Assembly (NCBI GenBank): GCA_041937175.2
Contig: CP166615.1
Location: forward strand, 1,568,001-1,632,000
DNA length: 64,000 nt
From: Limnothrix sp. BL-A-16
GTDB lineage: Bacteria > Cyanobacteriota > Cyanobacteriia > CACIAM-69d
Reading direction: 5' to 3'
Below the pieces are notes generated by a model. It did no database searches and was not told the DNA's origin. It worked only from the letters and a program-made list of their open reading frames with translations. This document shows, piece by piece, positions 2,888 to 48,376 of this stretch (position 1 is the stretch's first letter; each line of letters begins with the position of its first letter). The position numbers and the translations under genes were made by a program.

Positions 2888-4384
2888 ATGCTCCTAACCG
2901 CTGACGATCTACTCTTTTTTCAGCGCTGCCCCCGGCGCGTCTTTTTGGATTTCTATGGCGATCCCAGTCGGCGCGCCCCCACCGCCGGTTTTATCCAAAA
3001 ACTCCATGACGAGAGCGATCGCCACAAGCGCGATGCGGCCCAGCAAGTTGCCGAAAAGCTGGAACTCGAACCCGTGCGGCCGCAGTTTCGCCGGGGCGAT
3101 CGGGAGGCGGGCGCGGCGGCCACCTTGGCGCTGATGGAAGCGGGGGCGGGGTTGATTGTGGGTGGCCTGTTGCGGGTCGAGGAAATCCCCGGCGTGGAGC
3201 TGGTGGGCCATCCCGATTTATTGGTGAAACGGCCGGGCCAGTCGGCCTTTGGCGATTGGATCTATGAGCCGGTGGATATTCGATTGGGCAAGAAGCCGAA
3301 GCTGGAATATCAACTGGTGGCGGCGCTCCATGCGGACTTGTTGACGATGATTCAGGGGGCGGCTCCGGCCAAGGCGGGCGTGATTTTGCGCGGGCGATCG
3401 CCCCATTGGGTGGACTTGCGGACGCGGCTGAAACAGGTGCAAGATTTGCTGGCGAACTTGATCGACCAACTGATGGAGGACGATCGGGAGCCGGAGCTGT
3501 TCATTTCCCGCAACCGCTGTTCCCTCTGCCATTGGGTGGGGGACTGCACCGATCGGGCACGGCAAACCAAGCACCTGTCGCTGATCCCCGGTGTGACTCC
3601 CGCCCGCTACCGGGTGTTGGAGCGACTGAAGATCCAGACGATCGAGCAGTTGGCGGCCACACCGGTCGATCGGCTCCAAGCATTTCCCGAGTTCGACGGT
3701 GCGGCGGAGGCGGTGTTGCTGCAAACCCGCGCCACCTTGACCCAGCAACCGATCGCCCTGGCCGTTCGTGAGGCTTGGTCGCCCGATCGCCTACCCGTTG
3801 CCCCGGTGGAACTCTATTTCGACATCGAAGCGGAGCCGGATATTTCTCTGGATTATTTGTTAGGGGTGTTGGTGGTGGATCGATCGCAACCGGAGCCGAC
3901 CTTTCACCGATTTCTAGCAGAAACTCCCGAGGATGAGCAGCGAATTTGGGGGGAATTTTTGGCGCTGGTCGATCGCTACCCGACCGCACCAATTTTCCAC
4001 TTTTGTGAGTATGAGCGGGATGCGAGCAAGCGCCTGGCCAAGCTCTACGGGTTAAGTGCTCAGCGGCTGGAATCCCTGCTCGATCGGTTTGTGGATGTCC
4101 ATGCTTGGGTGACGCAAACGGTGGTGTTGCCGGTGGAAGGCTATGCCCTGAAGCAAATCGCGGGCTATTTGGGGTTTGAGTGGCGCGATCGCACGGCCAA
4201 TGGCTCCCAAGCGGTCTATTGGTACGATAAGTGGCTGAAAACGGGCGATCGTTCCTATTTAGAGGCGATCGTCACTTACAACGAGGACGATTGTTTGGCC
4301 ACCTATCGGGTCAAACATTGGCTCGAACAATTCCATCAACAGCAATTAGAACTGCGATCAGAACTCGTTGATCTAGCGGTGTAG
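2888..4384 (+). CDS. TM0106 family RecB-like nuclease with C-terminal RNase H-like domain
   Basis: CPRR, GHPDLL, CSLCHW, YFDIE and YNEDDC motifs. Confidence 0.88.
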
Positions 4385-31899: not shown

Positions 31900-32261
31900 T
31901 GCTTAGCCCAGTAGCCTCAGTGGCGGACTGTTCAAAGTATAAAGAAGCACCTCTTTAACTAAAGAAAACCTAGTCTGAAACGCTGGCTCAAGCATGTGGC
32001 AAAATCACGAGGTATAAAAACATAATTGAATCCTAAATTTATGGATGCCAAATTTTTAAATTCGACTGAGAAAGATACAACAAATCTAACAGGAGTTAAT
32101 ATTTTTGCCCACGATCAATTAACTGTTGAATGACCTAATCAACAGCTCATCGGCAGCCCGCCCTTGGTCGCCCGACCAATACCCACAGCCCTCGTCCGCT
32201 GACGCTGGACAGCGGATTCATTCTGGGGTGTTTCGTGTCATGCTTTTCCGACCGTTCCCGC

Positions 32262-32501
32262 TCAGCCCTCGTCCTCAGCGTCTTTAGGAGCCAGCTCCCC
32301 GATCGCCCGGCCCAAATAGGCCTCAACAAAAGCCCGCGCCGCCTTTGGGTTCAACTGCTCTAGGGCATCCACGATCGATGGAATCGATTCCGCTGTTGGG
32401 TCGCGCGTTTCTGCGAACCAATGGCTAATAGTGGCGCGATTGATGCCCATCGCCACCGCTAAGCGATTTTGGGCGATGTTGTATTGCTGCAACCGAATCA
32501 T
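32262..32501 (-). CDS. XRE-family HTH protein, possibly 5'-truncated
   Basis: IAQNRLAVAMGINRATISHW HTH; abuts the island edge. Confidence 0.6.
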   Translation of the reverse strand: MIRLQQYNIAQNRLAVAMGINRATISHWFAETRDPTAESIPSIVDALEQLNPKAARAFVEAYLGRAIGELAPKDAEDEG

Positions 32502-32609
32502 CCTCGTGGGTCAAAGCGAGTGGGTCGATCGCTTGGTCAAGAGCCGCTACGTAACTGGTGTTTAGCATTATTGTTTTGAAGCTCTCGATTTTTGTACTGC
32601 TGGTGCTTA

Positions 32610-33059
32610 TCAATTAGCTTGCTCTTCTTGAAATGGGCTTGCATACCACTGTAAGTACCATTGTTCTGGATCCTCATCACTGGAACAGTCTTCATACTTT
32701 GGAATATGAATCTGGTAAGAATCATGAAAAGACAAGTGAAGACTGTTGTCTTCCAAAAATTCGTACCCTGTAAATATGCTTTGATTTAACGGATGAAATA
32801 GATTGCACCACTCTTGAAATCTTAGTCTGTAGTCAATATCTTCATAATGTGGGCACAAGTAGGCATCTGCAATCAGTTCTCCATTCTGCATAAATGACCA
32901 AGGTGGGTCAATCCAAATGTAACCTTGCCTTTTTAATTTGTCTTTTTTTTCAAATCTGATTTTGATGGAATTACACGCAATTGAATGGTGACAAGTCTTT
33001 CCAATAAAACCTCTCAAAATCGGTTCATACTTTTGTCGATCACTAGTGATATGGCCCAA
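32610..33059 (-). CDS. Hypothetical protein (cassette E cargo)
   Basis: 149 aa, AT-rich, TTG start with GAGGTGG upstream, follows attI-like copy 3. Confidence 0.6.
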   Translation of the reverse strand: MGHITSDRQKYEPILRGFIGKTCHHSIACNSIKIRFEKKDKLKRQGYIWIDPPWSFMQNGELIADAYLCPHYEDIDYRLRFQEWCNLFHPLNQSIFTGYEFLEDNSLHLSFHDSYQIHIPKYEDCSSDEDPEQWYLQWYASPFQEEQAN

Positions 33060-33175
33060 TTTTCCACCTCATTCTCAATACTACAGATGTGCTTTCAACC
33101 TTTAAGCTGAAAGCTATTAACCTTGATCGCTGACAAAGAGTCTATCAAACAAGTTTATAACCTCTTTCTGAAGCA

Positions 33176-33310
33176 GGACAACTATTGATTAAATGATTAG
33201 ATTGCAGTTGCTTGAAAACTCTTTCAGCAGAGTGTTGTTCAGCAGTGGCAAAACAATGTCATCAATTATCATACTTTTGTTGTAACGATCGCCCTGGAAG
33301 CGTCACAGCC
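33176..33310 (-). other. attI-like platform copy 3 (diverged)
   Basis: + strand GGACAAC-TATTGATTAAATGATTAGATTGCAGTTGC...CTCTTTCAGCAGAGTGTT aligns with 33696 and 40307; identity ends at AAC. Confidence 0.65.
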
Positions 33311-33375
33311 CTAACCCAACAGCGCGATCGCCTGTTTCACCAGGTTCTCCGCCGTCAGACCGTTGAGGCCCATCA
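33311..33375 (-). pseudogene. Phosphoketolase 3'-end fragment 3 (65 bp, includes stop)
   Basis: Encodes MGLNGLTAENLVKQAIALLG*, matching the end of 40473..42680. Confidence 0.9.
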
Positions 33376-33678
33376 AACGTCTTCATCGTAGGCTCTCGCA
33401 ATCGCGGTGTCGAAACGGCTGGCAAACTCGCAGAACTCCTGCCCCCAACCACTGCTCACACTGACCTCCTGGATTGGGCCGGTGGGAAGAAACAAAAGCT
33501 CAATGTCGGAACGCTTGGGTATGTCGCCAGACTCAATGCGAGAAACAATGCTGTCAATCTCTCGAAGTGCTGCCGGTGCATCCTTCCATGAAGACCAATC
33601 AAAGTTGTTGTCGGGCCGCGAGAGGAACTGGCGCGCCTCTCGGAGAACCTCAACCAACTGTTGGTGCTTGGAATTCAT
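33373..33678 (-). CDS. Hypothetical protein (cassette D cargo)
   Basis: 101 aa; ATG about 20 bp after the GTTAGGT core; its TGA overlaps phosphoketolase fragment 3. Confidence 0.7.
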   Translation of the reverse strand: MNSKHQQLVEVLREARQFLSRPDNNFDWSSWKDAPAALREIDSIVSRIESGDIPKRSDIELLFLPTGPIQEVSVSSGWGQEFCEFASRFDTAIARAYDEDV

Positions 33679-33695
33679 AGAGACGTGCGGATGAC

Positions 33696-33861
33696 ACCTA
33701 ACTATTTATTAGATCGCAGCTGCGGGATGACTCTTTCAGCAGAGCGTTGTCAAGCAGTTGCAGTGTAACTTCAGTATGAAGGGTATTATCCCGCAGTTGC
33801 GAGATAATACCCCCACTTATAGAACTTCTATCGCAACGATCGCCCTGGAAGCGTCACAGCC
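33696..33861 (-). other. attI-like platform copy 2
   Basis: Minus strand ...TCTAATAAATAGTTAGGT; collinear with 40307-40472; includes palindrome 33781-33812 and TTGACA at 33748-33753. Confidence 0.8.
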
Positions 33862-34014
33862 CTAGCCCAATGGCGCGATCGCCCGTTTCACCAGATTCTC
33901 CGCCGTCAGACCATTGAGGCCCATCAGTTGGCCAGCGGTGGCCGTCGTTTCGCCGCGCTTCCAGGCGAACAGATCGCGCGGGGCCGTGCTACGGAGGGCG
34001 ATCGGCTCCAGCAT
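33862..34014 (-). pseudogene. Phosphoketolase 3'-end fragment 2 (about 153 bp, includes stop)
   Basis: Encodes MLEPIALRSTAPRDLFAWKRGETT...RAIAPLG*. Confidence 0.92.
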
Positions 34015-34018
34015 GGTG

Positions 34019-34753
34019 TTAGTCGTCGCCATCACGTTCAATCTCACGCTCAATAATCTCTTTGACAAACTCAGGCAGTTCCTTCTCAACACTGACAGCC
34101 CTTTGCTTGAGCCTTTCATAAATCTCAGTGTCATCTCCTTCCCAAAGCAGATCTATTCTTCTGATCTGCCGCATTGCAATATGCTCATAGCTTTCTGGAT
34201 AAGCCCAGTAGCAAGATAGACAAATAGATTTATCCTTAATGCTGTTCCAGTTTTCGCAATGTTCGCATGACCACGACTTGGCCCGGTTAGCTGAGCCACA
34301 AAGTAACATGAAATTTTCTGGGACTAGATCCGGCTCACCAGCAACTTCAAAAGGGACACGATGATCAATTTGTAATTCGCGTTGATTAACCTCTTCAAGA
34401 TAAATAAAGCACCTACATCCATATCTGCTAATCAGTGCCTCTTTAATCTGCTTGGATAAACCTGTTCTGCCAGAAAGGCGAGTGAATCTTGTCTTGCTAA
34501 TATCTCCAAGTCGATATGCAGCTATTTTTCTGCCATCGCTTCCAGTAACACGAAAAGTTTCTAATGGGATACCACTTTCTCTAACATCTCTAGCTGCTCT
34601 TGGAGGATGGTTATAACCGTAAGTTTCTTTTAATTCCTCAGTTGTAATAAATCCGTGTTGCAAGATGTGGTCAATGACTGCTTTCGGTCTCTTTGCTGTT
34701 ACAGAACGGCAAAGTTCCAGGAAGTCATCGGGTAGCTGCTGTGAATTCTCCAT
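34019..34753 (-). CDS. HNH endonuclease, probable restriction enzyme (cassette C)
   Basis: LQIDHRVP...NFMLL...NRAK, CEHC and CLSC; TAA lies within the inverse core GACTAAC. Confidence 0.82.
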   Translation of the reverse strand: MENSQQLPDDFLELCRSVTAKRPKAVIDHILQHGFITTEELKETYGYNHPPRAARDVRESGIPLETFRVTGSDGRKIAAYRLGDISKTRFTRLSGRTGLSKQIKEALISRYGCRCFIYLEEVNQRELQIDHRVPFEVAGEPDLVPENFMLLCGSANRAKSWSCEHCENWNSIKDKSICLSCYWAYPESYEHIAMRQIRRIDLLWEGDDTEIYERLKQRAVSVEKELPEFVKEIIEREIERDGDD

Positions 34754-35672
34754 GTGTTTCCAAAAGGGTTAGCTGCTTTGGTTGTTGGTCAATATAGCTA
34801 AAATCATAAATTTTAGTGTTCATTAATTTTTTGGATAAACTTGGCGACAAGTACAGCGACTCAATTGTATTTTCCGATTTGCCTAGTAAGGTAGACTGTG
34901 AAGATCTGCCAACTTCGATTTCGATTCTTTCAAGATTTAAGCTATTAGGGAGAAATTTGCCAAACGCCTTATCACCTAATTTTCCGTCATAACTGATAGC
35001 AAATACAGATCCTTTTTGATTTAAGCATTCAAGCGCTAACACAAATTCATCGAAGTCTATCCCAGACAAATATCTTGAATCTCTATTGCCGCATACACCT
35101 TGATATGGAGGATCCATATAGATAAAATCACCTTCTTGAATTTGCTCTAATACCTCTCGGTAATCCAAATTAGTAAATTTACATTTGCTTTTGAGCAAAC
35201 TAGAAACACCGATTATATTTTTTCTCATTGTTTCGGGTCGTGTTCCTTTGCGTCTTTTGTCCGGACTTTGGTTAAACAATCCTTCAGAATTGTAGCGAAC
35301 CGAACCTTTAACGCACCTTGCTAGTAGATAAAGAAGTAGTTTTGGATCGTTGGTCTCATTGAATTTTGATCTGACTTCAAAGTAATGGTCTACAGAATTG
35401 GGGTGTTGTTTATTCCATAGCTCTAAGTAAAAATCGGCTATTTCGTCTGGTTTTTCTACAGCTAGTTCTAGGAGCTTGATGAGCGGATGGTTCAGATCGT
35501 TTAACCAAAAACTCTGGGTGATTTGACTTGCGGACGTAGCAACACTAATTGCAGCAGTTCCAGCAAAAGGCTCTACTAGCCTCTTGAATTTTTTTGGAAA
35601 GAACTGGAGGATGTGCTTTGCTAGCTTCCTTTTGCTGCCTTGATATTGAATGAAGTGGGGTAGGTTTGCCAT
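34725..35672 (-). CDS. D12-class (Dam-like) N6-adenine DNA methyltransferase (cassette C)
   Basis: YQGSK, EPFAGTAA, YMDPPY. Confidence 0.9.
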   Translation of the reverse strand: MANLPHFIQYQGSKRKLAKHILQFFPKKFKRLVEPFAGTAAISVATSASQITQSFWLNDLNHPLIKLLELAVEKPDEIADFYLELWNKQHPNSVDHYFEVRSKFNETNDPKLLLYLLARCVKGSVRYNSEGLFNQSPDKRRKGTRPETMRKNIIGVSSLLKSKCKFTNLDYREVLEQIQEGDFIYMDPPYQGVCGNRDSRYLSGIDFDEFVLALECLNQKGSVFAISYDGKLGDKAFGKFLPNSLNLERIEIEVGRSSQSTLLGKSENTIESLYLSPSLSKKLMNTKIYDFSYIDQQPKQLTLLETHGEFTAATR

Positions 35673-35782
35673 CGTTATACAAGGACAAATGATCTTACAG
35701 CGGCTGATTAGGATAGTTCGAGCTTATCGCTTAATTCAAGCATTTTTTCAAGGGCGATCGAAGGGGTGAGGCTGGAGTCTAA

Positions 35783-35810
35783 GACGACTAACGATTCATT
35801 CGGCTGCAAT
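35783..35810 (-). other. Distal half of an attC site; start of cassette C
   Basis: Minus strand GCAGCCGAATGAATC-GTTAGTCGTC; the last 10 nt are the reverse complement of the cassette end at 34018-34027. Confidence 0.65.
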
Positions 35811-36019
35811 GATCGCCCGTTGAACCAGGTTCTCAGCCGTCAGACCGTTGAGGCCCATCAGTTGGCCAGTGGTGGCTGTCGTTTCGCCGCGCTTCCAGGC
35901 AAACACATCGCGTGGGGCCGTGCTGCGGAGAACGATCGGCTCCAGCATCGCACTCGTGCCGCCGGTCACGCCCAACAACGCATCACCGCCGAAGAGCCGA
36001 TCGAACGTTGTGCATCATC
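35811..36019 (-). pseudogene. Phosphoketolase 3'-end fragment 1 (about 209 bp, no stop)
   Basis: Encodes TFDRLFGGDALLGVTGGTSAMLEP...ENLVQRAI; ends within a HIP1 site (GCGATC). Confidence 0.92.
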
Positions 36020-36075
36020 CACAGCAAGATAACGGTGTTAGCCTGTCTCAACCAATAGTTTAGTAGAGCAATCCA

Positions 36076-36900
36076 TTAATCTCTTTCCTCATCCTGAAGC
36101 TCTTTTTCGTCTATCTCAACTAGCTCATCAACTACCGAATCTAAAGAAGGTTGATCATCTTCTGAAGGCAATCTGTATTTAGATAAAAAACTCTGAAGCT
36201 TAGGATGCGGTATCCTTTTTAGCTTTCCAAAATTTGTATCCTCGTTAAAATCCTTACCTTCAGATTCCTTGCGACCATATGAATTTGTGTCTAAAGGTAA
36301 ACCTTTTCTGAGTTTTTCTTTCCCGATTTTGCTTAAAACCGTTGGCGTTTCATAATTTCCAAACCATCTTCCACCACGATCAGTCATACGTTTATCTCGT
36401 GCTTCAACAAGCTCAATCATAGAAAAAAGTTCGAGATCAATAATTTGGGGAACTGCTGCATCTGAGTTCAGATCATCTACCTCCATTCGATATGCTATGA
36501 GCAGCATTGCGTCTAACTCCGGATCGACATTTTTGACAGTTACTTTCTGAGTAAGTCGGGCTGATGGCTCTCGTGGTGTAGGCGGCTTTTTCATTTTAAG
36601 ACCAGGATTATCTACATAAAGAAGCTTTAGCTCCAACCTCTTGCCAGATTCATGTTTGTAATCTGGATATCCTTCTCTTTCTCCCAAAATACCTTCATGC
36701 TTTTCAAGCCCAAGTCCTTTTATATCCAAATGAGGAATGAGTGCATCCATCAAGGCACCTACAATTGTGCCTACTTGAGATGGTTCAAATGCGGTAATTG
36801 CTACTATCGGCAGACTTAAGCTCCGAAATTGTTGTCCTATCAAAGGCTTAAGTTGCTCTTTTAGCTTATCCAAGTCATGGTTCGATATGCGACCACTCAT
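36076..36900 (-). CDS. Putative PD-(D/E)xK restriction endonuclease (cassette B)
   Basis: GYPDY...RLELK; ATGA-coupled to the upstream HTH gene; next to an MTase. Confidence 0.62.
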   Translation of the reverse strand: MSGRISNHDLDKLKEQLKPLIGQQFRSLSLPIVAITAFEPSQVGTIVGALMDALIPHLDIKGLGLEKHEGILGEREGYPDYKHESGKRLELKLLYVDNPGLKMKKPPTPREPSARLTQKVTVKNVDPELDAMLLIAYRMEVDDLNSDAAVPQIIDLELFSMIELVEARDKRMTDRGGRWFGNYETPTVLSKIGKEKLRKGLPLDTNSYGRKESEGKDFNEDTNFGKLKRIPHPKLQSFLSKYRLPSEDDQPSLDSVVDELVEIDEKELQDEERD

Positions 36901-37157
36901 GTCTCTTTCTCTTCCTTCTGAATTTTTTGTTTTATTTCAGAAGGGAGGACATCTTCTAGATAAAGACCTAAGGCAGCACACCATTTAGCTGCTTCAATTA
37001 CATCAAGCCGTCTTTCACAGGTTTCTACCTTGGAGACCAAGGTTTGCTCTTTACCCAATCTTTCCCCCAACTGTTGCTGAGAAAGATTTTGTCTCTTACG
37101 AGCACGACGAAGGCGAGCAATAAACTCAATGTAGAGAGGGTCACGAGCACCCGACAT
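36897..37157 (-). CDS. XRE-family HTH regulator, controller-protein-like (cassette B)
   Basis: LRRAR...LSQQQLGERLGKEQTLVSKVETCERRLDV. Confidence 0.85.
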   Translation of the reverse strand: MSGARDPLYIEFIARLRRARKRQNLSQQQLGERLGKEQTLVSKVETCERRLDVIEAAKWCAALGLYLEDVLPSEIKQKIQKEEKET

Positions 37158-37330
37158 AAGGCAGCAAGTATGCGAATTTAGGGTACAAGTTGAAGGTAGA
37201 GGATGCCATCCATTCCTGACCTAAATCGTGCATCTCCTTAGCAAATACCCCAAAAACGCATATTTATAGTTTCCCGACCATCGTCTTGACAAATGATCAA
37301 CCCTGCGCGATACTTCGGTTGACTAAAGGA

Positions 37331-38629
37331 ATGAGTATGGCTAAACGACATCAAAATCAACAAGGCAACCTCGAATCGCTGTTTCTTCGCATGGAAGAAC
37401 TTGTTCTTGCAAATTCTGGTGAGGACGAGTTTGAGGAGGTGTTTAAGTTGCTTGTAGCAAAGCTTTGGGATGAACGAAGCCAACAATCTAAATTTTATCG
37501 ATATAGCACTGATGAAGCTACCTTTGAAGCAATAGCCAAACTCATGAGAGAAGCGGAAAAAAAATGGTCGGGAGTTCTCAATGAAGTCACATCCAAACTT
37601 ACGCCTGAGCATCTTTCAATCTGTGTAGATGCTCTTTCAAAACATAACATCTCTAATGAAAGTCTTGATGTTATTGATAGTTTCTTTGAATTTATAGTAT
37701 CCAAGTCGGCAAAGGGAGCTAAAGGTCAATACTTTACTCCAAGGCATGTAGTTGAACTATGTGTAAGAATTTTAAAACCTTCTTCAGGTGAGACAATTCT
37801 TGATCCGGCTTGCGGATCGGGCGGATTTCTCCTCCACGCATTGAAATTTATTAAACAACATGAAAAGTTAGATAGTGGAGGAGAAATTCAAGGCTTTTGT
37901 AGTGAAAAATTATGGGGTTTTGATATTGATGCCAAAGCCACACGAGTTGCTAAGGCTTTAATGATACTTGCAGGAGATGGGAGTAGTAACATTGTCAGGC
38001 TTAATAGCTTATTGAAGCCTGAAATGATTGGGCTTTTTAGAAACACAGAAGAGCCGAATCTTACTATAGAGGATGTATGTCGAAGTCGAATTAAACGTCA
38101 CAAAGGTTTCGACGTTATCCTTACAAATCCTCCCTTTGCTGGTGAGATTAGAGAAAATAGCTTTCTCAATTGTTATAACCTTGCAAATAAAAAATCTCGA
38201 ATTGAAAGGGATATATTATTTGTTGAGAGATGCCTTGAGCTATTAAGACCTGGAGGGCGATTAGCTATAGTCTTGCCTCATAATAAGTTTGCCGGAAAAT
38301 CATTTGAGTTTCTACGACAATGGATTTTGAGGAAAGCAAGAATTCTTGCTGTCATAGGTTTAGGAAGAAATACTTTTATGCCTCATACTCATCAAAAAGC
38401 CAGTATTCTAATATTGAAAAAGCAATCTCCTGGGAAGAGTATCCCGTCAGATTATAATATCTTTTTTGCGATTAGTGAAAAAGATGGCAAGAACTCTAAG
38501 GGGCAGTTTGTTCTGCATGAATCTGTTGCGAGATTAGAAAATACTTGGGAAGATATAGATCATGACTTCTCAGAAATAGTTGAAGGCTTTGAGACATTCT
38601 TAAAACAGGAAAATATTGATTTCGAGTAA
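37331..38629 (+). CDS. HsdM-like N6-adenine DNA methyltransferase (cassette B)
   Basis: GQYFTPR, DPACGSGGFL, TNPPF. Confidence 0.9.
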   Translation: MSMAKRHQNQQGNLESLFLRMEELVLANSGEDEFEEVFKLLVAKLWDERSQQSKFYRYSTDEATFEAIAKLMREAEKKWSGVLNEVTSKLTPEHLSICVDALSKHNISNESLDVIDSFFEFIVSKSAKGAKGQYFTPRHVVELCVRILKPSSGETILDPACGSGGFLLHALKFIKQHEKLDSGGEIQGFCSEKLWGFDIDAKATRVAKALMILAGDGSSNIVRLNSLLKPEMIGLFRNTEEPNLTIEDVCRSRIKRHKGFDVILTNPPFAGEIRENSFLNCYNLANKKSRIERDILFVERCLELLRPGGRLAIVLPHNKFAGKSFEFLRQWILRKARILAVIGLGRNTFMPHTHQKASILILKKQSPGKSIPSDYNIFFAISEKDGKNSKGQFVLHESVARLENTWEDIDHDFSEIVEGFETFLKQENIDFE

Positions 38630-38634
38630 CAAAT

Positions 38635-39294
38635 ATGGCTTTGATTTCGATTCAGTCAAAAACTCGTCTTGTGTCACCAGTAATTCTTGCTCCCGAAAGA
38701 TACGATCCAAGACGGAAAATCAAGACGCAAGAAAACGAAGTAGTTGAGCTAGGTGAAATCGTTATTTCCGTAAAGAAGATGGTTAAATCCTCTGTTAATC
38801 TTGGAAAATGTTTTGTTCTTGATACTTCTGACGCTCGAGAAGGCATTGTAATTGCCAGAAAGCAATCGCTGCAAGGCACTGAAATTGGTAGCACCAAGAA
38901 GGAGGTCAAATCTGGGGATGTTATTATCTCACGTCTTAGACCATATCTACGACAAGTAGCATTTATTGATGAAGAGATACCTAATGCTAATGGTACTCAG
39001 ATTCTTTGCTCTACGGAATTCTTTGTCTTACGCTCAATTGATAATCTATCGATAGCATTTTTGGTACCTTTTTTACTTTCAAACGCAATTCAGGAAGTAC
39101 TCGCAGCATCCCAAGAAGGTGGGCATTATCCTAGATTTATCGAATCGGCTCTTCTAACACTTCCTATACCCAAAAGCCTCTTATCCCAACGCTCACTGAT
39201 CTCTGAAGTTGTCAGAAATAGTGTTCAAATGTACAGAGCTTCTGAGAAATCGATGTCAAACATGGTCGAAAAGATTAACGCTACGCTGTCTTAA
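38635..39294 (+). CDS. HsdS-like half-size specificity subunit, single TRD (cassette B)
   Basis: GDVIISRLRPYL, CSTEFFVLR, YPR...LPIP. Confidence 0.75.
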   Translation: MALISIQSKTRLVSPVILAPERYDPRRKIKTQENEVVELGEIVISVKKMVKSSVNLGKCFVLDTSDAREGIVIARKQSLQGTEIGSTKKEVKSGDVIISRLRPYLRQVAFIDEEIPNANGTQILCSTEFFVLRSIDNLSIAFLVPFLLSNAIQEVLAASQEGGHYPRFIESALLTLPIPKSLLSQRSLISEVVRNSVQMYRASEKSMSNMVEKINATLS

Positions 39295-39350
39295 GATTTT
39301 TCTCATGAAATTTTAGATTTGCGGAGGGCAGCAAGACCTAGACTTTTGCA

Positions 39351-39436
39351 GGCTAACGTTCCTGGTCAGCGGTTGCCGATACCTTGTCCACTCCACAAGC
39401 AACTTGGGGCAATCCGCTGCACCAGGGTTGTTGTGC
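39351..39436 (-). other. Integron attC recombination site (86 bp)
   Basis: Minus strand GCACAAC-AACCCT-GGT(G)CAGC-GG(A)TTGCC...GGCAACC-GCTGACC-AGGAAC-GTTAGCC: R''/L''/L'/R' layout with two unpaired bases, 11 bp after an ORF stop. Confidence 0.88.
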
Positions 39437-39447
39437 TGCGTGCTGAA

Positions 39448-40212
39448 CTATTCATTATTTACTTTAGGTTCTGAAGGTTTTGGTTCTCGCAACTTATTCT
39501 TAACTTGATTGTTAGAATTATTTAGAAAATCAGATTCTATACCAGCAGAACTCCTTTCAATCAGGTTTGTAATAAGCTTATCCATAAGTTGTAGGTTTTT
39601 CTCTGGATCTTTAACTTGCTTACAAAGCTCAACAGCTAGCATTGTGTCTTGAATTCTAGTCAGTTGCTTATAGAATCGATTAGATTGCTCAACTGTCCGG
39701 TTATAAAGAACAAAGTTAGCACCTCCTATGAATTGAAGAATTATTCCAGAAATGCCAGATATAATCGACAACTCAAGCTTTTGTCCTTCTTTAATAAAAG
39801 GTAGCAATATTGCTATAACTACAGTAATAAATCCTAAAAATATGACTAATGCGCTGAAGCTAAAGCTACGTCTTGCTTGATTTTTGTTAATTGTATAGTA
39901 CTCGGTAATCTGATTTAAATTTAACCTTATAACATCTACAACACTATCTTCTCTTTCAATTCTTTCAATAATCTTTTCTCTTTCTTGCTTTATTGCTTTT
40001 ACTTCGATTGTTTCTGAGATTGCTGATTTGGATAAACTAAAAGGATTATTGGACAGGAGAAAAAACACAACAATTACAGTAAGAGGCAGTGTAGGAATAC
40101 CCAGGAAATTCCCAACCCACGCGACTAGAGCCGCCGTTATGAAATTAGCGGGGATCTCAGTCATCATTACTTGTGTCCATGCTTCTTTAAAGCTACTGGC
40201 TCTTTTTCTCAT
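39448..40212 (-). CDS. Membrane protein resembling the cyanobacterial TRADD-N-associated 2TM domain (cassette A)
   Basis: EYY...NQARRSF followed by two TM helices; AT-rich. Confidence 0.6.
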   Translation of the reverse strand: MRKRASSFKEAWTQVMMTEIPANFITAALVAWVGNFLGIPTLPLTVIVVFFLLSNNPFSLSKSAISETIEVKAIKQEREKIIERIEREDSVVDVIRLNLNQITEYYTINKNQARRSFSFSALVIFLGFITVVIAILLPFIKEGQKLELSIISGISGIILQFIGGANFVLYNRTVEQSNRFYKQLTRIQDTMLAVELCKQVKDPEKNLQLMDKLITNLIERSSAGIESDFLNNSNNQVKNKLREPKPSEPKVNNE

Positions 40213-40306
40213 AATGAATTTCCGTAGGCGTTGTATTTGGGAAAAGTTGCTAATACCTTAGCAAAAGAGCATAGCTTTTGATACTCCCCCAACCAATAAC
40301 TCAGCA

Positions 40307-40472
40307 GCACAACTATGTATTAGACCGCAAGTGCAGGATAACTCCTTCAGCAGAGTGTTATCAAGCAGCTACAGTCTAACTCCAGTCCAAAGGGTACTAC
40401 CCCGCAGTTGCAGGATAATACCCCCACCTATAGAACTTCTACCGCAACGATCGCCCTGGAATCGTCACAGCC
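40307..40472 (-). other. attI-like platform copy 1
   Basis: Minus strand TCTAATACATAGTTGTGC, compared with attI1 CCTAAAACAAAGTT; GTTGTGCTGC is the reverse complement of the attC R'' region at 39430-39439. Confidence 0.8.
40335..40364 (-). promoter_or_regulatory. Candidate Pc-like cassette promoter
   Basis: TTGATA-18 bp-TATCCT pointing at the crossover; copy 2 has TTGACA at the same place but a poor -10. Confidence 0.35.
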
Positions 40473-42680
40473 CTAACCCAACAGCGCGATCGCCCGTTTC
40501 ACCAGGTTCTCCGCCGTCAGACCGTTCAGGCCCATCAGTTGGCCAGCGGTCGCCGTCGTTTCGCCGCGCTTCCAGGCAAACACATCGCGCGGAGCCGTGC
40601 TGCGCAGGACGATCGGCTCCAGCATCGCACTCGTACCGCCGGTCACACCCAACAATGCATCACCACCAAAGAGCCGATCGAACGTCGCATCATCAATAAA
40701 GTGAGCATCCGGCTCCGAGCACATCTCCACCGCCACATCGGTCGATCGGTAGAGGCGACGGGGGCTAATCACCGACACGATCCGCGAACCGATCCCCTGG
40801 GCCGCCAACTGTTCGGCGGCCGCCAGCGCCGGGGTCAAGGTCATGTCACCAATCACCGCCAAGACCACGGTTTTTTCGCCGGGCGTTTCTTGCAACACAA
40901 AGCCGCCGTCCTGCAAGGCTTGGCGCGTTTGCTCAAAGGTCGAGACGATCGGCAGCGGCGACTTGCTGACCGTAATCGTGATCCCCTTGTTCACTTGCGC
41001 CAGCGCCCAGTCATAGCAAGCCTGGGTGCTGTTCGCATCGCAGGGGAACAGCGGGAAGATGTTGCCGTTGCGCATCATCGCCGCGAAGTAGTTTTCGATT
41101 TCCGGGCGTTGGTGCGTCCAGCCGTTGCGGCCCTGCTCCAGCGCACCCGCCGTGAACAGGCAGACCGTGGCGGGCGTGGGGCGGCGCAACTCGGCCATGG
41201 CTTGGGTGACGGTTTGCCAAATCGGCAGACCGTTGATCGCGAACGACTCGTAGGAACACCAGAGCGATCGCGCCCCAAACAGGGCTTGCCCCACCGCCAA
41301 CCCGGCGCAGGCATCCTCGTTCAGGGGTTCATACACCTGACCATCGGGCTGTTGGAAATAGATGGGGTCGGTGGTCGGGTGAACGATTTTCAGGCCCACA
41401 TTGATGTTGTTGATCCCCGAGGCGGCGTTGCCGTCGGCGTTGGTGACGATGAAGTCGCGATCGGCTTGACCCACTTGCACCACCACATCGCCCATGGCCG
41501 TGGTCGAAACCTTCTTTTCGCCGGCCGGGAATTCCACCAGGTTCAGCTTGCCCAAATCCGCTAGGGGCCGCACCTTTTCGGTCACGGCCACCTGAGCCGC
41601 CGGGCCACCGCCCGATCGCTCAAAGTTCGTCCGCACCAGTTGCCAAGCCTCCGGCGACAGGGCCCGCTCCTTCAGGGCCGCCACAATGTAGTCCCGCTCC
41701 AGGTTGTCGCCGGGATAGAGGTTGTGGGACTGAGCACCGCGCTTGTGTACGCCCGCGCCCTTCAGTTGCTTGATGATCAACACCGTCAGCTTGCCGCCCA
41801 AGGCCAGTTTCGCCGCCTGGTCGGTGGCTTCCAGCACTGCCTGGGCAAACACCAATCGCTGGGCAAAGGAAAACTGGGTGCTATCGACGTAATCGCCCGG
41901 TTGGTTGGCATCGTCGAAGTCCTTGGCATCCAGCAGCACCACTTCTTCAAAGCCATTGCCGCGCCAGTAGGCTTCCATGGCGGCGTTGGATTTGGTGGAG
42001 ACCATGCTGTGGTGCTCTTGGCTGTAGCCGTTCCAAATCAGAATCGGCAGGAAGTTGGTGGCCTGCGGATAGGCGGTGTTGAAGTGGCCAAAGCTGCTCA
42101 TGATGTAGGGTTCGCCCAGGCCGCCATCCCCGATCGTCACGGGGAAGAGGGTTCCGGGGAACAGCTTGGCCCCGGCCATGGCAAAGTGCTGACCCTGGCC
42201 GAGGGGGCCGGCGGGGGCCAGCAGGCCGGGAATTTGCCCCGACAGGTGGCCGAGCAGGCCGTGGGTTTCGCGGAATCGATCGCGCAATTGCTGCACCGTC
42301 GTGATGCCCATGGCTTCGAGCGATCGATCCAAGAACACCTGGGAATAGAAACCGGGGGCGTGGTGGCCCACTTCGGTGGTGAAGTTCTTGTAACCGAGCA
42401 TGATCAGCGCCGCCATCACATCGGCAGAGCTGGCATAGCCGCCGGGGTGGCCCGATTCCTTGCTGGCGGTCATCTGCACGATCAGGTAACGCAGGGCATC
42501 GGCCGCCAGGAGAGTTTGGAAGGCCGCCGCTCGATCGCTCGGGCTGGCGATCGCCCCTGTGGTCGCATCCACGGCTGGCGCAGCACCCAGGATGTCAAAT
42601 TCGGGCCAAGGCGCACCGAAGTATTGAATGCCGTCGCAAAACGCAGGCGTGGTCGTGGGTGCGGGGGTTGTGGCGGTCAT
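40473..42680 (-). CDS. Phosphoketolase family protein (ThDP-dependent)
   Basis: SGHPGG, GHHAPG, GPLGQG, GDG...N ThDP motif, GRNGWTHQRP. Confidence 0.88.
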   Translation of the reverse strand: MTATTPAPTTTPAFCDGIQYFGAPWPEFDILGAAPAVDATTGAIASPSDRAAAFQTLLAADALRYLIVQMTASKESGHPGGYASSADVMAALIMLGYKNFTTEVGHHAPGFYSQVFLDRSLEAMGITTVQQLRDRFRETHGLLGHLSGQIPGLLAPAGPLGQGQHFAMAGAKLFPGTLFPVTIGDGGLGEPYIMSSFGHFNTAYPQATNFLPILIWNGYSQEHHSMVSTKSNAAMEAYWRGNGFEEVVLLDAKDFDDANQPGDYVDSTQFSFAQRLVFAQAVLEATDQAAKLALGGKLTVLIIKQLKGAGVHKRGAQSHNLYPGDNLERDYIVAALKERALSPEAWQLVRTNFERSGGGPAAQVAVTEKVRPLADLGKLNLVEFPAGEKKVSTTAMGDVVVQVGQADRDFIVTNADGNAASGINNINVGLKIVHPTTDPIYFQQPDGQVYEPLNEDACAGLAVGQALFGARSLWCSYESFAINGLPIWQTVTQAMAELRRPTPATVCLFTAGALEQGRNGWTHQRPEIENYFAAMMRNGNIFPLFPCDANSTQACYDWALAQVNKGITITVSKSPLPIVSTFEQTRQALQDGGFVLQETPGEKTVVLAVIGDMTLTPALAAAEQLAAQGIGSRIVSVISPRRLYRSTDVAVEMCSEPDAHFIDDATFDRLFGGDALLGVTGGTSAMLEPIVLRSTAPRDVFAWKRGETTATAGQLMGLNGLTAENLVKRAIALLG

Positions 42681-42962
42681 GGGCAATTCACCTAGTGGTT
42701 CGACTCTCTCGACTGTAAGGCCAGTCTTGAGGCGATATTTTACAACCTTGATGTTGCTAAAGTCTCAGGACGATCAACTCAGGACGATCGAAACCGGCCC
42801 CTTAACGACCCGTTGTACTGGGGGCTGGACGATCAGCAGGCGATCGATTGTGGCAGTCTCTCGCTAAATTTGCCGCCCTAGTCCAGACCCAAAACGCCAC
42901 GCCCTAACCCATCAACCCTGTTGATAGACTGGGGGCAATTCCCCGATCGAAACTGGTCGCCT

Positions 42963-43508
42963 ATGTTGACCCTGGCGCAATGGACCGTGGCGGAATATCA
43001 CCAAATGATCGCGGCGGGCCTGCTGGTCGATCGCCGCGTGGAACTGTTGAACGGGCAAATTATTGAAATGTCACCGGAAGGGCCGGAGCATACCTATCGC
43101 GGCGAAACCCTGGCGGAGTGGCTGCGCGATCGCCTGCGGGGGCGAGCCTATGTGCGGGAAGCGCGACCGATTACCCTAGACCATTCGGAACCGGAGCCAG
43201 ATATTGCCGTGGTGCGGGGCGATCGATCCCAATTTGTCCAACGACATCCCGGCGCGGCGGATCTGTTTTGGGTGGTGGAAATTGCCCGATCGACCCTAGC
43301 CACAGACCTGACCCACAAGCGGGATCTCTACGCGCGGGTGGGAATTCCGGAATATTGGGTGGTGGATTTGGTGAATCGGCGGGTGGTGGTGTTTCGGCAA
43401 CCGGAAGCGGGCCGCTACAGCCAAGCGGAAACGGTGAGCGATCGCCCGATCGCGCCGCTGGCTTTCCCGGACTGTGCGATCGACCTGACCCAGCTCTTTC
43501 AACCGTAG
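42963..43508 (+). CDS. Uma2 family endonuclease, copy 1
   Basis: RVELLNG.I.EMSP, PEPD, VEIA, YAR.GIPEYW. Confidence 0.92.
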   Translation: MLTLAQWTVAEYHQMIAAGLLVDRRVELLNGQIIEMSPEGPEHTYRGETLAEWLRDRLRGRAYVREARPITLDHSEPEPDIAVVRGDRSQFVQRHPGAADLFWVVEIARSTLATDLTHKRDLYARVGIPEYWVVDLVNRRVVVFRQPEAGRYSQAETVSDRPIAPLAFPDCAIDLTQLFQP

Positions 43509-43540
43509 AGTCTGCCGCGTGACGACGCGACAACGCAATT

Positions 43541-44086
43541 ATGTTGACCCTGGCGCAATGGACTGTGGCGGAATATCACCAAATGATTGCGGCGGGCCTG
43601 TTGGTCGATCGCCGCGTGGAACTGTTGAACGGGCAAATTATTGAAATGTCACCGGAAGGGCCAGAACACCGCTACCAATGCAGCAGTTTGGGCGATCGGC
43701 TGCGGGTGCTGTTGCGCGATCAGGCTTGGATTAGTGAGGCACACCCGATTACGCTGGATGACTCGGAACCGGAGCCGGATTTGGCCATTGTTCGGTTGCC
43801 TCGATCGGCCTTTCGCGATCGCCACCCGGGGCCAGCGGATCTGTTTTGGGTGATTGAAATTGCTCGATCGACCCTCACCACAGACCTGACCCACAAGCGG
43901 GATCTCTACGCGCGGGTGGGAATTCCGGAATATTGGGTGGTGGATTTGGTGAACCGGCGGGTGGTGGTGTTTCGGCAACCGGAAGCGGGCCGCTACAGCC
44001 AAGCGGAAACGGTGAGCGATCGCCCGATCGCGCCGCTGGCCTTCCCGGACTGTGCGATCGACCTGGCCCAGCTCTTTCAACCGTAG
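43541..44086 (+). CDS. Uma2 family endonuclease, copy 2
   Basis: Same motifs and the same 546-nt length as copy 1. Confidence 0.92.
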   Translation: MLTLAQWTVAEYHQMIAAGLLVDRRVELLNGQIIEMSPEGPEHRYQCSSLGDRLRVLLRDQAWISEAHPITLDDSEPEPDLAIVRLPRSAFRDRHPGPADLFWVIEIARSTLTTDLTHKRDLYARVGIPEYWVVDLVNRRVVVFRQPEAGRYSQAETVSDRPIAPLAFPDCAIDLAQLFQP

Positions 44087-46138: not shown

Positions 46139-48376
46139 CTAGGGGCTGTTTTTGGGTTTGGAATCAGCTTGAAACGGTTGCAAAATTGCTTGGGTTTCCG
46201 GATTGTAGAGCCGTAGATAATTCCAATAATTGCCCAACACGTTTTCCACGTAACCGCGCGTTTCCGAAAAGGGAATTTGCTCCACAAATCGATCGAGATC
46301 TGCCGTGCCAAATTGCTTCACCCAGCGGTTTACATTCCCCGGCCCAGCGTTGTAGGCGGCCACGGCTAGCAAACTGTTGTTGTCATATTCCCGGTGTGTG
46401 TAGTCCAAAAACCAAGTGCCAAGTTTGATGTTGTCCGGGGGATTTTCCAGGCTGTAATCCTTGAAGCCGATTTTGTTGGCCACCCATTCGCCCGTGGAAG
46501 GCAACACCTGCATTAAGCCCACGGCATTGGCGATCGAGCGGATATCACGTTCAAAGTGGGACTCTTGGCGAATTAGCCCCAACACGAGGGCCGGATTCAG
46601 GTTTTGGGCCCGGGCCCCGGCGGCGATCGGATCCCAATAGGGACGGGGATAGAGCCGCCGCCAATAGTTCAAGTCTCGGCGGGCGGCCGCAAACTGTTCC
46701 CGATCGCCCGGTTCCTCGCGCCACCGCAAATTAGCCAGGGCAAAAAGACCGGCTAAATAATCGCCATTGCCCAGTCGCAACGTGCCGTCTGTGTATTGCT
46801 CTGCAAAGGTGGGCTGGTTGCGGTTTTGGAATTCCGTTTGCCAATAGTCAAAGGCGGCGCGGTCTTGCTCCAGTTGATAGAGCGCTTGCAGGGTAGGCGA
46901 TCCGGCGGGTAGGGGGGCGCGCGGGGGCGGCGGTTGCAGGGTGGGTTGCCCCGATCGAATGGTGGTGAAATCTCCGACCGGTAACCCCAACTTCACGGCC
47001 GATCGCCAGGCGTAGTAAGACTCGGGATACTGTTGCAGGGTGTGGCGGTAGGCCGCTTGGGCGGCGGCTTGGTCTCCCAACTGGGCGGCCCATTGTCCGG
47101 CCCAAAAGCTGGCCCGGGGGGCATCTTCATGCTCAGGGTTCTGTTGCACCAGGGCGATCGCCCATTGGCGGGCCGCTTGGGGGCTGGTGGCGGCAGCTTC
47201 CTCGGCCAGTTGCCAGCGCAAATCGCCGGCCGCGTCGCTGTTGCTGAAGGTTTTGAAGAGTCGATCGCGATCGGCCGTGGCGGGCTGTTGCTGATTTTTC
47301 AGGATCCGCACTCGCTCCAACAGGGCCCGAGGGGCATGGGTGGGGTTGGCTAGGGCGCGATCGAGCAGGGCCAAGCCTTCGGCCGGCGGCACTAACCGGG
47401 CCAAACGGGTCATGCCAAAGGCCGCTTCCGGAGCTTGGGGAAATTGCTGAATCAGCCGACGATAGCGGGCGATCGCCTCGGGCCGTTTGCCGCCCAGTTG
47501 GGCCCCCCGCCCGGCCCGATAGGCATGGAGGGGGCTGGGGGTGGCTTTGGCGTAGGCATCGCCGGCCTTGGCGTATTGACGACGATCCCAATAAATCCGC
47601 CCGATCGTGGCCCAATCGGCGGGGGTGATGGCGGTGGCGAACTGACTTTCTAGGGGCCCCAGATAGTTACCCACATCCCGCGCATCGGGGGCATGGCGCA
47701 ATAGATATAGGAACCAATCGGGGCGATCGGGCGTTTGGGCTAACCGTTGCTTGGCCACCGCGATCGCCCGGGGATGCGATTTCCAGGGGGAATCGGCCGC
47801 CACCAGGCGATCAAGCCATTTGGGATCCTGTTGACCCAATCCATAGAGCGCTTCCGCCGTGGCCGGATCCTGGGGAAATTGCTTCAGCAGGGCTTGCCAG
47901 GTTTGGCTGGCCCCCGCCCGATCGCCCCCTTGGAGTTGCGCCTTGGCCCGCAGGGCCAACACCGGAGCCAACAGCACCGGATCATCGGCCTTTTCCAGCC
48001 ACTTCAGGGCCGTTGCATGGTCTTTGACGCTCAGGGCCTCCGTGGCCAGCACATAGCGTGCGCCCGATCGAGTCAAAGGGGTGGCCGATTCCGCCAGTTC
48101 CGTCAGGGGAGGCACTTTGGGCGCTTTGGGATCCGTGGCCTCGGGATTTGGCGTTTCTTGGTGAATTCGGGCCGCGGCCACTTCGGTTAAACCCGTTGCG
48201 GGAGATTGGTTAGCCTGACGATTGGCCAACCAATCCCCCATGGGCGACAGGGCCGCACCGACCCCCAAGGCCACGGCTCCCGCAGCGCCCAAACCCACCA
48301 CCCAAGGGCGATCGCGCCACAGGTGACGTAAACCCATTGTCCAAGTTGCAAACTTCACGGCCGGCCTCGATCGCAA
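46139..48376 (-). CDS. Soluble lytic transglycosylase (Slt70-like with TPRs); ATG start may be 48337
   Basis: IRQES, AVGLMQV, AAYNAGPG, ETRGYV. Confidence 0.92.
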   Translation of the reverse strand: MRSRPAVKFATWTMGLRHLWRDRPWVVGLGAAGAVALGVGAALSPMGDWLANRQANQSPATGLTEVAAARIHQETPNPEATDPKAPKVPPLTELAESATPLTRSGARYVLATEALSVKDHATALKWLEKADDPVLLAPVLALRAKAQLQGGDRAGASQTWQALLKQFPQDPATAEALYGLGQQDPKWLDRLVAADSPWKSHPRAIAVAKQRLAQTPDRPDWFLYLLRHAPDARDVGNYLGPLESQFATAITPADWATIGRIYWDRRQYAKAGDAYAKATPSPLHAYRAGRGAQLGGKRPEAIARYRRLIQQFPQAPEAAFGMTRLARLVPPAEGLALLDRALANPTHAPRALLERVRILKNQQQPATADRDRLFKTFSNSDAAGDLRWQLAEEAAATSPQAARQWAIALVQQNPEHEDAPRASFWAGQWAAQLGDQAAAQAAYRHTLQQYPESYYAWRSAVKLGLPVGDFTTIRSGQPTLQPPPPRAPLPAGSPTLQALYQLEQDRAAFDYWQTEFQNRNQPTFAEQYTDGTLRLGNGDYLAGLFALANLRWREEPGDREQFAAARRDLNYWRRLYPRPYWDPIAAGARAQNLNPALVLGLIRQESHFERDIRSIANAVGLMQVLPSTGEWVANKIGFKDYSLENPPDNIKLGTWFLDYTHREYDNNSLLAVAAYNAGPGNVNRWVKQFGTADLDRFVEQIPFSETRGYVENVLGNYWNYLRLYNPETQAILQPFQADSKPKNSP

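Follow-up and report, generated by a model that had tools for sequence, protein, structure and literature searches.

A probable integron cassette array with a retained attI site and no integron integrase downstream of a phosphoketolase-like gene in Limnothrix sp. BL-A-16

Limnothrix sp. BL-A-16 (genome G000 below) carries a series of gene cassettes next to the 3' end of a phosphoketolase-like gene, and this series is analyzed here within a window of 64,000 nucleotides (nt), positions 1,568,001 to 1,632,000 of contig CP166615.1, the numbering of which starts at its first letter. An integron cassette features an attC site at its 3' end, in which R'' (..AAC) and R' (GTT..) close a hairpin that is imperfect, as it contains an unpaired spacer and one or more extrahelical bases. 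The original prediction, made from the sequence of this locus, was that three cassettes, A, B, and C, each begin with the inverse complement of their own end, and that these self-complementary ends are the signature of circular cassette intermediates. Read in the direction of the cassettes, the locus consists of the features listed here, where the slash in G/TT marks the crossover point, attI is the insertion site assigned below, and Xr2, Xr3, and Xr4 are internal copies of the 3' end of the phosphoketolase-like gene (gene X) with all or part of attI.

40473 to 42686, minus strand: gene X, 737 amino acids (aa), distantly phosphoketolase/transketolase-like, the source gene of the 3'-end copies within the array
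40313 to 40472, minus strand: attI region, copy 1, the ~160 nt after the gene X stop, with two long imperfect hairpins
39357 to 40312, minus strand: cassette A, starting (G)TTGTGCTGC, with R'' GCAGCACAAC at 39439-39430
39348 to 39439, minus strand: attC of cassette A, 92 nt, made up of R'' GCACAAC, an AAC spacer, the stem, an AAC spacer, and R' GTTAGCC
36034 to 39356, minus strand: cassette B, a restriction-modification module of 3.3 kilobases (kb) (Pfam, NCBIfam)
36034 to 36045, minus strand: collapsed attC of cassette B, CAGGCTAAC plus ACC, then directly GTTATCT
35793 to 36033, minus strand: Xr2, copy of the gene X 3' end (alignment columns 67-273, 91% identity) with an 18-nt attI-end remnant, beginning G/TTATCT
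34015 to 35792, minus strand: cassette C, a restriction-modification module (Pfam), with R'' GACGACTAAC at 34027-34018 followed by ACC and no attC body
33703 to 34014, minus strand: Xr3, copy of the gene X 3' end (columns 136-450, 89%)
33376 to 33702, minus strand: cassette D, starting GTTAGGTGTC; the 3' end and attC are deleted
33183 to 33375, minus strand: Xr4, copy of the gene X 3' end (columns 224-315, 97%)
32592 to 33182, minus strand: cassette E, starting GTTGTCCTGC

Gene X matches Pfam XFP (2.5e-11) and XFP_N (3.6e-08) and scores 100 bits with the NCBIfam phosphoketolase models, which is far under their cut-off. The gene and the same downstream site are kept in G001, G002, and G007, which are genomes of the same family. 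Copy 1 of the site ends in TTGCGGTCTAATACATA, followed by G/TT as the crossover point. Fifteen related sites from G000 and these three genomes, some of them at the gene X locus and others outside it, share the end ATA/GTT and are followed by unrelated DNA. A profile of the 15 sites matches the DNA just upstream of intI in the true integrons of G171 and G110, where the region ends in TTATCCAGCAGATCTGACGTTGAATATATA/GTT about 260 nt from the start of the divergent intI and features the same GGGGTATTATCC...GGATAATACC palindrome. In other integrons of the class, the region on the intI side ends in GTCTAAATAAGA/GTT and similar sequences. Given its homology to the region beside intI in G171 and G110, the hairpinned region before the cassettes is assigned as attI, and the head of the array is thus recognized by sequence homology. 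Other candidates for this region, a TnpB/IscB guide RNA scaffold, an IS200/IS605 end, and a Xer/dif-type site, were rejected once it had been assigned as attI. Rfam gave no match in 32000-41000, and no transposase or tnpB was found near the array. A near-perfect palindrome with a stem of 14 base pairs, GGGGGTATTATC..GATAATACCC, lies inside attI at 40392-40423 and at 33781-33812; the same palindrome, possibly a site where a protein binds, occurs upstream of intI in G171 as well.

Cassette A contains an open reading frame (ORF) at 39448-40212 for a 254-aa membrane protein with two transmembrane segments and a CyanoTRADDas_TM domain (Pfam). The stem of its attC features one extrahelical base and folds as DNA with -18.6 kcal/mol. 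An alignment of six attC sites from G000 and G001 shows compensatory changes in 11 of 21 consensus pairs, and a covariance model, R1, was built from it. R1 scores the attC of A with 83.4 bits (E 5.8e-21), which is the sole strong match in the window with the filters off. The covariance model was used instead of home-made minimum-free-energy scans for attC, which produced many false matches in coding DNA rich in G+C and overlooked sites already known. A search of 401 genomes of the class with the DNA of A and B together returned nothing but an attC look-alike in G397. This look-alike (L141, G397:C626:2563-2650), which comes from a genome of another family, is 88% identical to the attC of A and has a different R'', GCAGGCTAAC.

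The inverse pairs were read directly in the minus strand and lie at the predicted bases. They are GTTGTGCTGC at 40313-40304 with GCAGCACAAC at 39439-39430 in A, GTTAGCCTG at 39357-39349 with CAGGCTAAC at 36045-36037 in B, and GTTAGTCGTC at 35792-35783 with GACGACTAAC at 34027-34018 in C, and the complementarity between start and end is 10/10, 9/10, and 10/10, respectively. The stop codon of the HNH endonuclease, the TAA of the 244-aa ORF at 34019-34753, also falls inside the inverse core of C, within GACGACTAAC, as had been claimed. All three cassettes thus combine a G/TT boundary with a start that is complementary to their own R''. The three pairs together tile the region; the starts of A and C directly abut an attI end, and the start of B directly abuts the R' of attC. 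The end words of A and C are each unique on the minus strand of the window, and the end word of B, CAGGCTAAC, is present twice, with the extra copy at 48209, in high-GC coding DNA, taken as chance.

Inverse pairs of this GTT..AAC type are common. A 15-kb stretch contains 14 pairs of at least 9 nt that are no more than 6 kb apart, whereas 30 shuffles average 4.4 such pairs (1.2 for pairs of at least 10 nt). A lone inverse match is weak evidence. The same count favors the view that the three matches are chance inverted repeats. This view is refuted by the independently defined boundaries, by the attC of A, and by the identical boundaries in unrelated genomes, which leave it a negligible probability. 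The placement of the three pairs is not regarded as chance, and the case rests on their position and on comparison across genomes. Cassette C contains two ORFs.

34725 to 35672, minus strand: Dam-type N6-adenine methylase, 315 aa
34019 to 34753, minus strand: HNH endonuclease, 244 aa

The HNH protein was used to find 80 related loci in public genomes. At the level of DNA, the region matching the window begins at query positions 101-109 (GTT is at 109) in 9/80 loci, L060-L063, L065, L067, L068, L078, and L127. It ends at 1882-1885 in most of the 80 (AAC ends at 1883), and in none of them does it run more than 26 nt past the end boundary, the furthest reaching 1909. In other genomes, the start of C is preceded by the end of an attC in L060 and L065 and by an attI-like end in L063, L067, L068, L092, and L127; in L068, an intI fragment is located beside this end. 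After C, these genomes feature GACGGCTAAC, then ACTGCGTTGGTGCGGACGG...CTGCCGCCGCACAACTTCACC and GTT, which is a full attC of about 70 nt. R1, which was built from another attC subtype, matches the end of cassette C in 12 of the 52 loci searched. The usual start and end of the cassette elsewhere are GTTAGCCGTC and GACGGCTAAC; in G000 both sides have changed, to GTTAGTCGTC and GACGACTAAC, and the complementarity is still 10/10, while in L078 the cassette is changed at the start only. In the window, the R''-ACC of C is joined to gene-X-like sequence, which resembles the 5' arm of attC in 11 of 16 bases. The same Dam/HNH cassette in another cyanobacterium also features a collapsed attC, AAC-TTCACC-GTT (L067, 4725-4760); this site collapsed independently, and hairpin loss therefore recurs. 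HNH homologues with 67-75% aa identity were found in records titled Chlorobium, Methylococcaceae, Nitrotoga, Verrucomicrobia, and others (L111-L139), which indicates that the system crossed phyla.

Cassette B contains four ORFs.

38635 to 39294, plus strand: weakly S-subunit-like protein, 219 aa
37286 to 38629, plus strand: N6 DNA methylase, 447 aa
36897 to 37157, minus strand: helix-turn-helix protein, 86 aa
36076 to 36900, minus strand: protein without a family, presumed nuclease, 274 aa

The 274-aa ORF was used to find 58 metagenome loci. The homologous blocks of L142 (98% identical) and L145 (78%) stop at query positions 3415-3416, and the AAC ends at 3414. L142 reads CAGGCTAAC followed by ACTGCGTTGGTGCGGACGG...CTGCCGCCGCACAACTTCACC, a full attC of the ACTGCG...TTCACC type, whereas the window has AAC-ACC-GTT only. 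Because L142, at 98% identity, holds a full attC at this position, G000 would have lost the hairpin of B by a clean deletion. The stump after B is a weak match to R1 (11.2 bits, E 1, filters off). Of the 58 loci, four were searched with R1, and in three of them the model matches after B. The attC that defines an integron cassette is thus present in A in the window, and for B and C it is found in their homologues elsewhere. These comparisons, the check proposed with the original prediction, gave a positive result and bear out the claim that the inverse matches define cassette boundaries even where the attC body is lost, as homologues of both B and C stop at the identical bases and carry a full attC. 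The reading of the matches as a signature of circular intermediates is likewise supported, by the boundaries of the homologous blocks and by the canonical attC of A; the complementarity is a record of a past circular form, a historical mark.

The locus is very probably an integron cassette array downstream of the phosphoketolase-like gene that has kept its attI insertion site, with the integron integrase absent. This reading draws on direct observations, namely the matches, the attC of A, the homology of attI, the same cassettes with full attC sites in other genomes, and the lack of intI. The cassette blocks have a G+C content of 36-42%, compared with 55% for the genome. Each cassette would formerly have been a circle with an attC, and the integrase would have cut at G/TT and inserted the circle at attI, which would be why a cassette begins with TT and the reverse complement of its own R''. 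The attC bodies of B and C may have been lost through deletions at the foot of the hairpin. B and C are low-G+C restriction-modification systems that were probably acquired from other cyanobacteria. Circles of B and C are now impossible by the integrase route, since the genome has no integrase and neither cassette has an attC. Among the three cassettes, only A keeps both sites intact, so A could in principle be excised and B and C could not. The array may now be inert; alternatively, it may depend on an integrase in trans or on homologous recombination.

Several observations weigh against this reading. No integron integrase was found in the complete genome, where the best score with TIGR02249 is 99 bits compared with a cut-off of 265, and the best-scoring protein leaves model positions 182-232, the IntI-specific region, unmatched. 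A tblastn search with three cyanobacterial IntI proteins found no intI relic in the genome, and IntI is present in 0/8 genomes of the family (G000 and seven others, the same eight making up the order). IntI scores above the cut-off in 126 of the 401 sampled genomes of the class. The sole tyrosine recombinase of the complete genome is Xer-like, with 307 aa (C1:1647928-1648851; L047 7928-8851, minus strand), and is located about 40 kb from the array; it scores 182 bits with the XerC and XerD models, below their cut-offs. This recombinase is syntenic in G001, also about 40 kb from the array, and the attI core is dif-like. The locus is therefore not a complete integron with intI beside attI, and because neither the genome nor the family has an integrase, the array is either a fossil or served in trans. 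The remaining points concern the cassettes. According to the R1 search, the window holds just one canonical attC. B is large (3.3 kb) and has genes on both strands, and no R'' was found for D or E in the window. The 15-kb stretch contains 11 further GTT..AAC pairs of at least 9 nt, and the first cassettes of G001, G002, and G007 have no inverse match of at least 9 nt within 6 kb (0/3). Additionally, copies of the end of a host gene with attI inside an array were not found as a described integron feature in the literature searched.

These internal copies are located between B and C (Xr2), C and D (Xr3), and D and E (Xr4). Xr3 includes a full copy of attI that ends in CTAATAAATA, then G/TT at 33702, and the attI of Xr4 has an internal deletion and ends in AATCAATA, then G/TT at 33182; both carry the hairpinned region ending in ATA/GTT. 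An intact left end of such a copy reads G/TTATCT (or G/TTCTCT, G/TTATCC), directly after an attC. This arrangement was found three times in G001, after the attC stump of B in G000, and after an attC-like end in a contig from public run X12. With a left end at G/TT and a right end at the attI crossover, the unit is bounded like a cassette that has attI as its site. Its first 10 nt (GTTATCTTGC) were not traced to gene X of G000, G001, G002, or G007. Cassette D contains an ORF of 101 aa without a family (33373-33678); in G001 it keeps an R''-like GACACCTAGT with a short attC hairpin and G/TTATCT, and the G000 version is shorter by ~190 nt. Cassette E contains an ORF of 149 aa without a family (32610-33059) and is 86% identical to its G001 counterpart over 572 nt; no R'', attC, inverse match, or model match was found for it.

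A repeated gene end resembles the islands that are located at tRNA genes or at gene 3' ends. Tandem genomic islands in the 3' end of gene X, inserted by a site-specific integrase of a non-integron type, would explain the copies as attL/attR repeats and make the inverse matches incidental. The 3' end of gene X is indeed repeated three more times with 89-97% identity, between inserts that are low in G+C, as is the target-gene end in such islands. However, the repeat carries attI and starts at the integron crossover, no integrase is encoded in the inserts, and the genome contains a single tyrosine recombinase match and a single serine recombinase match. The left limits of the repeats vary (columns 67, 136, and 224) and the right limit is always the G/TT of attI. 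Elsewhere, these inserts occur as known integron cassettes complete with attC, and the repeat unit starts at G/TT right after an intact attC in G001 (three times) and in run X12. Neither an element-encoded integrase nor a common crossover inside the repeated end, the marks of an integrative island at a gene 3' end, was found. Tandem islands were the first working idea, which was dropped on the second array described below, the homology of attI, and the full attC sites in homologues of B and C; the explanation is now very improbable.

Within the integron reading, the copies of the gene X end and attI may have arisen once as a cassette-like unit and then spread. It is possible, though rather unlikely, that the integron platform of this family changed its mode, so that the last 100-400 nt of gene X plus attI would act as a cassette with attI as its site, would have multiplied in arrays, and would provide portable homology through which strains gain, lose, or exchange modules by RecA-type recombination and transformation, even once attC has decayed. 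In G001, a further unit, made up of the gene X 3' end starting at about column 146 and attI, is located at a different locus beside an unrelated gene (G001:C90:46584-46897, L030), where it forms the head of a small array that has two attC sites.

The genome of G000 contains a second cassette array outside the window (C1:3430877-3437100, L046). Its head is an attI-like site ending in CTAATACATA/GTG, and it features at least four attC sites and genes for SUKH-1, DUF6331, methyltransferase, dehydrogenase, and GNAT proteins, with hairpins similar to the attC of A between them. Inside the array, a 222-nt stretch at 3434236-3434457 repeats the head flank of this array and part of attI with 86% identity. 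Complementarity between start and end is 7/10, 10/10, 10/10, and 9/10 in this second array and 9/10, 8/10, and 9/10 in G001. R1 finds five sites in G000 (one in the window, three in the second array, and a weak fifth at 3694943), seven in G001, four in G007, one weak site in G006, and none in G002-G005.

Comparison with relatives indicates where the array varies. G000 and G001 share Xr-C, Xr-D, and Xr-E and differ between attI and the first Xr. Contigs of relatives that are ~97% identical (public runs) cover 33000-36034 and 40347 onward and diverge exactly at 36034, as does run X12, and A plus B (4312 nt) is replaced by 2122 nt in run X3 and by 1088 nt in run X13. None of the runs contained more than 0.26 of the sampled words, so none of them represents this strain itself. 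The sharing up to 36034 and from 40347 shows that the variable slot is the one next to attI. An alternative for this turnover is that the locus is a true integron remnant in which modules are now exchanged by homologous recombination among the units of gene X end and attI, with natural transformation and no role for an integrase. Xr2 (columns 67-273) and Xr3 (136-450) overlap by about 138 nt, as expected from a single crossover of a C-bearing circle into a full-length unit. The slot between gene X/attI and Xr2 is the only one that varies among the ~97% relatives and in G001. The second array likewise contains an internal copy of its own head, and the family has no integrase. However, an integrase acting in trans at attI accounts for the variable first slot equally well as recombination between gene X/attI and the first Xr. 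Additionally, the contig joints that would record loss between repeats (33958-35934 in run X13 and 33713-40336 in run X1) fall within repeats and have short sides; they may be alignment mosaics and were not counted. Turnover by homologous recombination is a possible explanation, somewhat less likely than not, and it complements the reading as an integron array rather than excluding it.

Just upstream of gene X, the window contains adjacent paralogous ORFs of 195 and 181 aa at 42921-44086 (plus strand), which form a 578-nt tandem repeat with 75% identity.

Integrons in Cyanobacteria and integrase-less clusters of attC sites (CALIN) have been described, and PMC4889954 defines CALIN as at least two clustered attC sites with no intI nearby. 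By the covariance model of this analysis, the window contains one strong attC and one collapsed one, and the second array contains three matches. The array resembles sedentary chromosomal integrons and CALIN in its G/TT boundaries, its R'' and R', the unpaired spacer and extrahelical base of its attC stem, the complementarity of cassette start and R'', and its accessory genes of foreign composition. As in CALIN, there is no intI close by. Unlike CALIN as described there, it keeps attI although the whole genome and the family have no intI, and the window features one canonical attC, two cassettes without an attC body, and attI copied inside the array. It is like the complete cyanobacterial integrons of G171 and G110 in having a homologous attI end with upstream palindromes, and the Dam/HNH cassette is the first one after the attI-like sites of L063, L067, L068, L092, and L127. 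In complete integrons, a divergent intI is located about 260 nt upstream, whereas here that position is taken by the 3' end of the phosphoketolase-like gene in the orientation of the cassettes. Defence systems have been reported as integron cassettes in large integrase-bearing arrays (bioRxiv 10.1101/2024.07.02.601686); B and C are likewise restriction-modification systems, but unlike the cassettes of those arrays they are immobilized by the loss of attC.

The element is an integron remnant of a known kind in a phylum in which integrons are common, and only the attI-bearing repeats and the variable first slot without an integrase go beyond the textbook. The short complementarity of start and end can delimit cassettes even after attC has been deleted, which helps to annotate decayed arrays that are missed by attC-based tools. 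Two of the cassettes are restriction-modification systems in wide circulation among cyanobacteria. A lineage that features attI and a still-variable first slot but no integrase bears on the origin and persistence of integrase-less cassette clusters.

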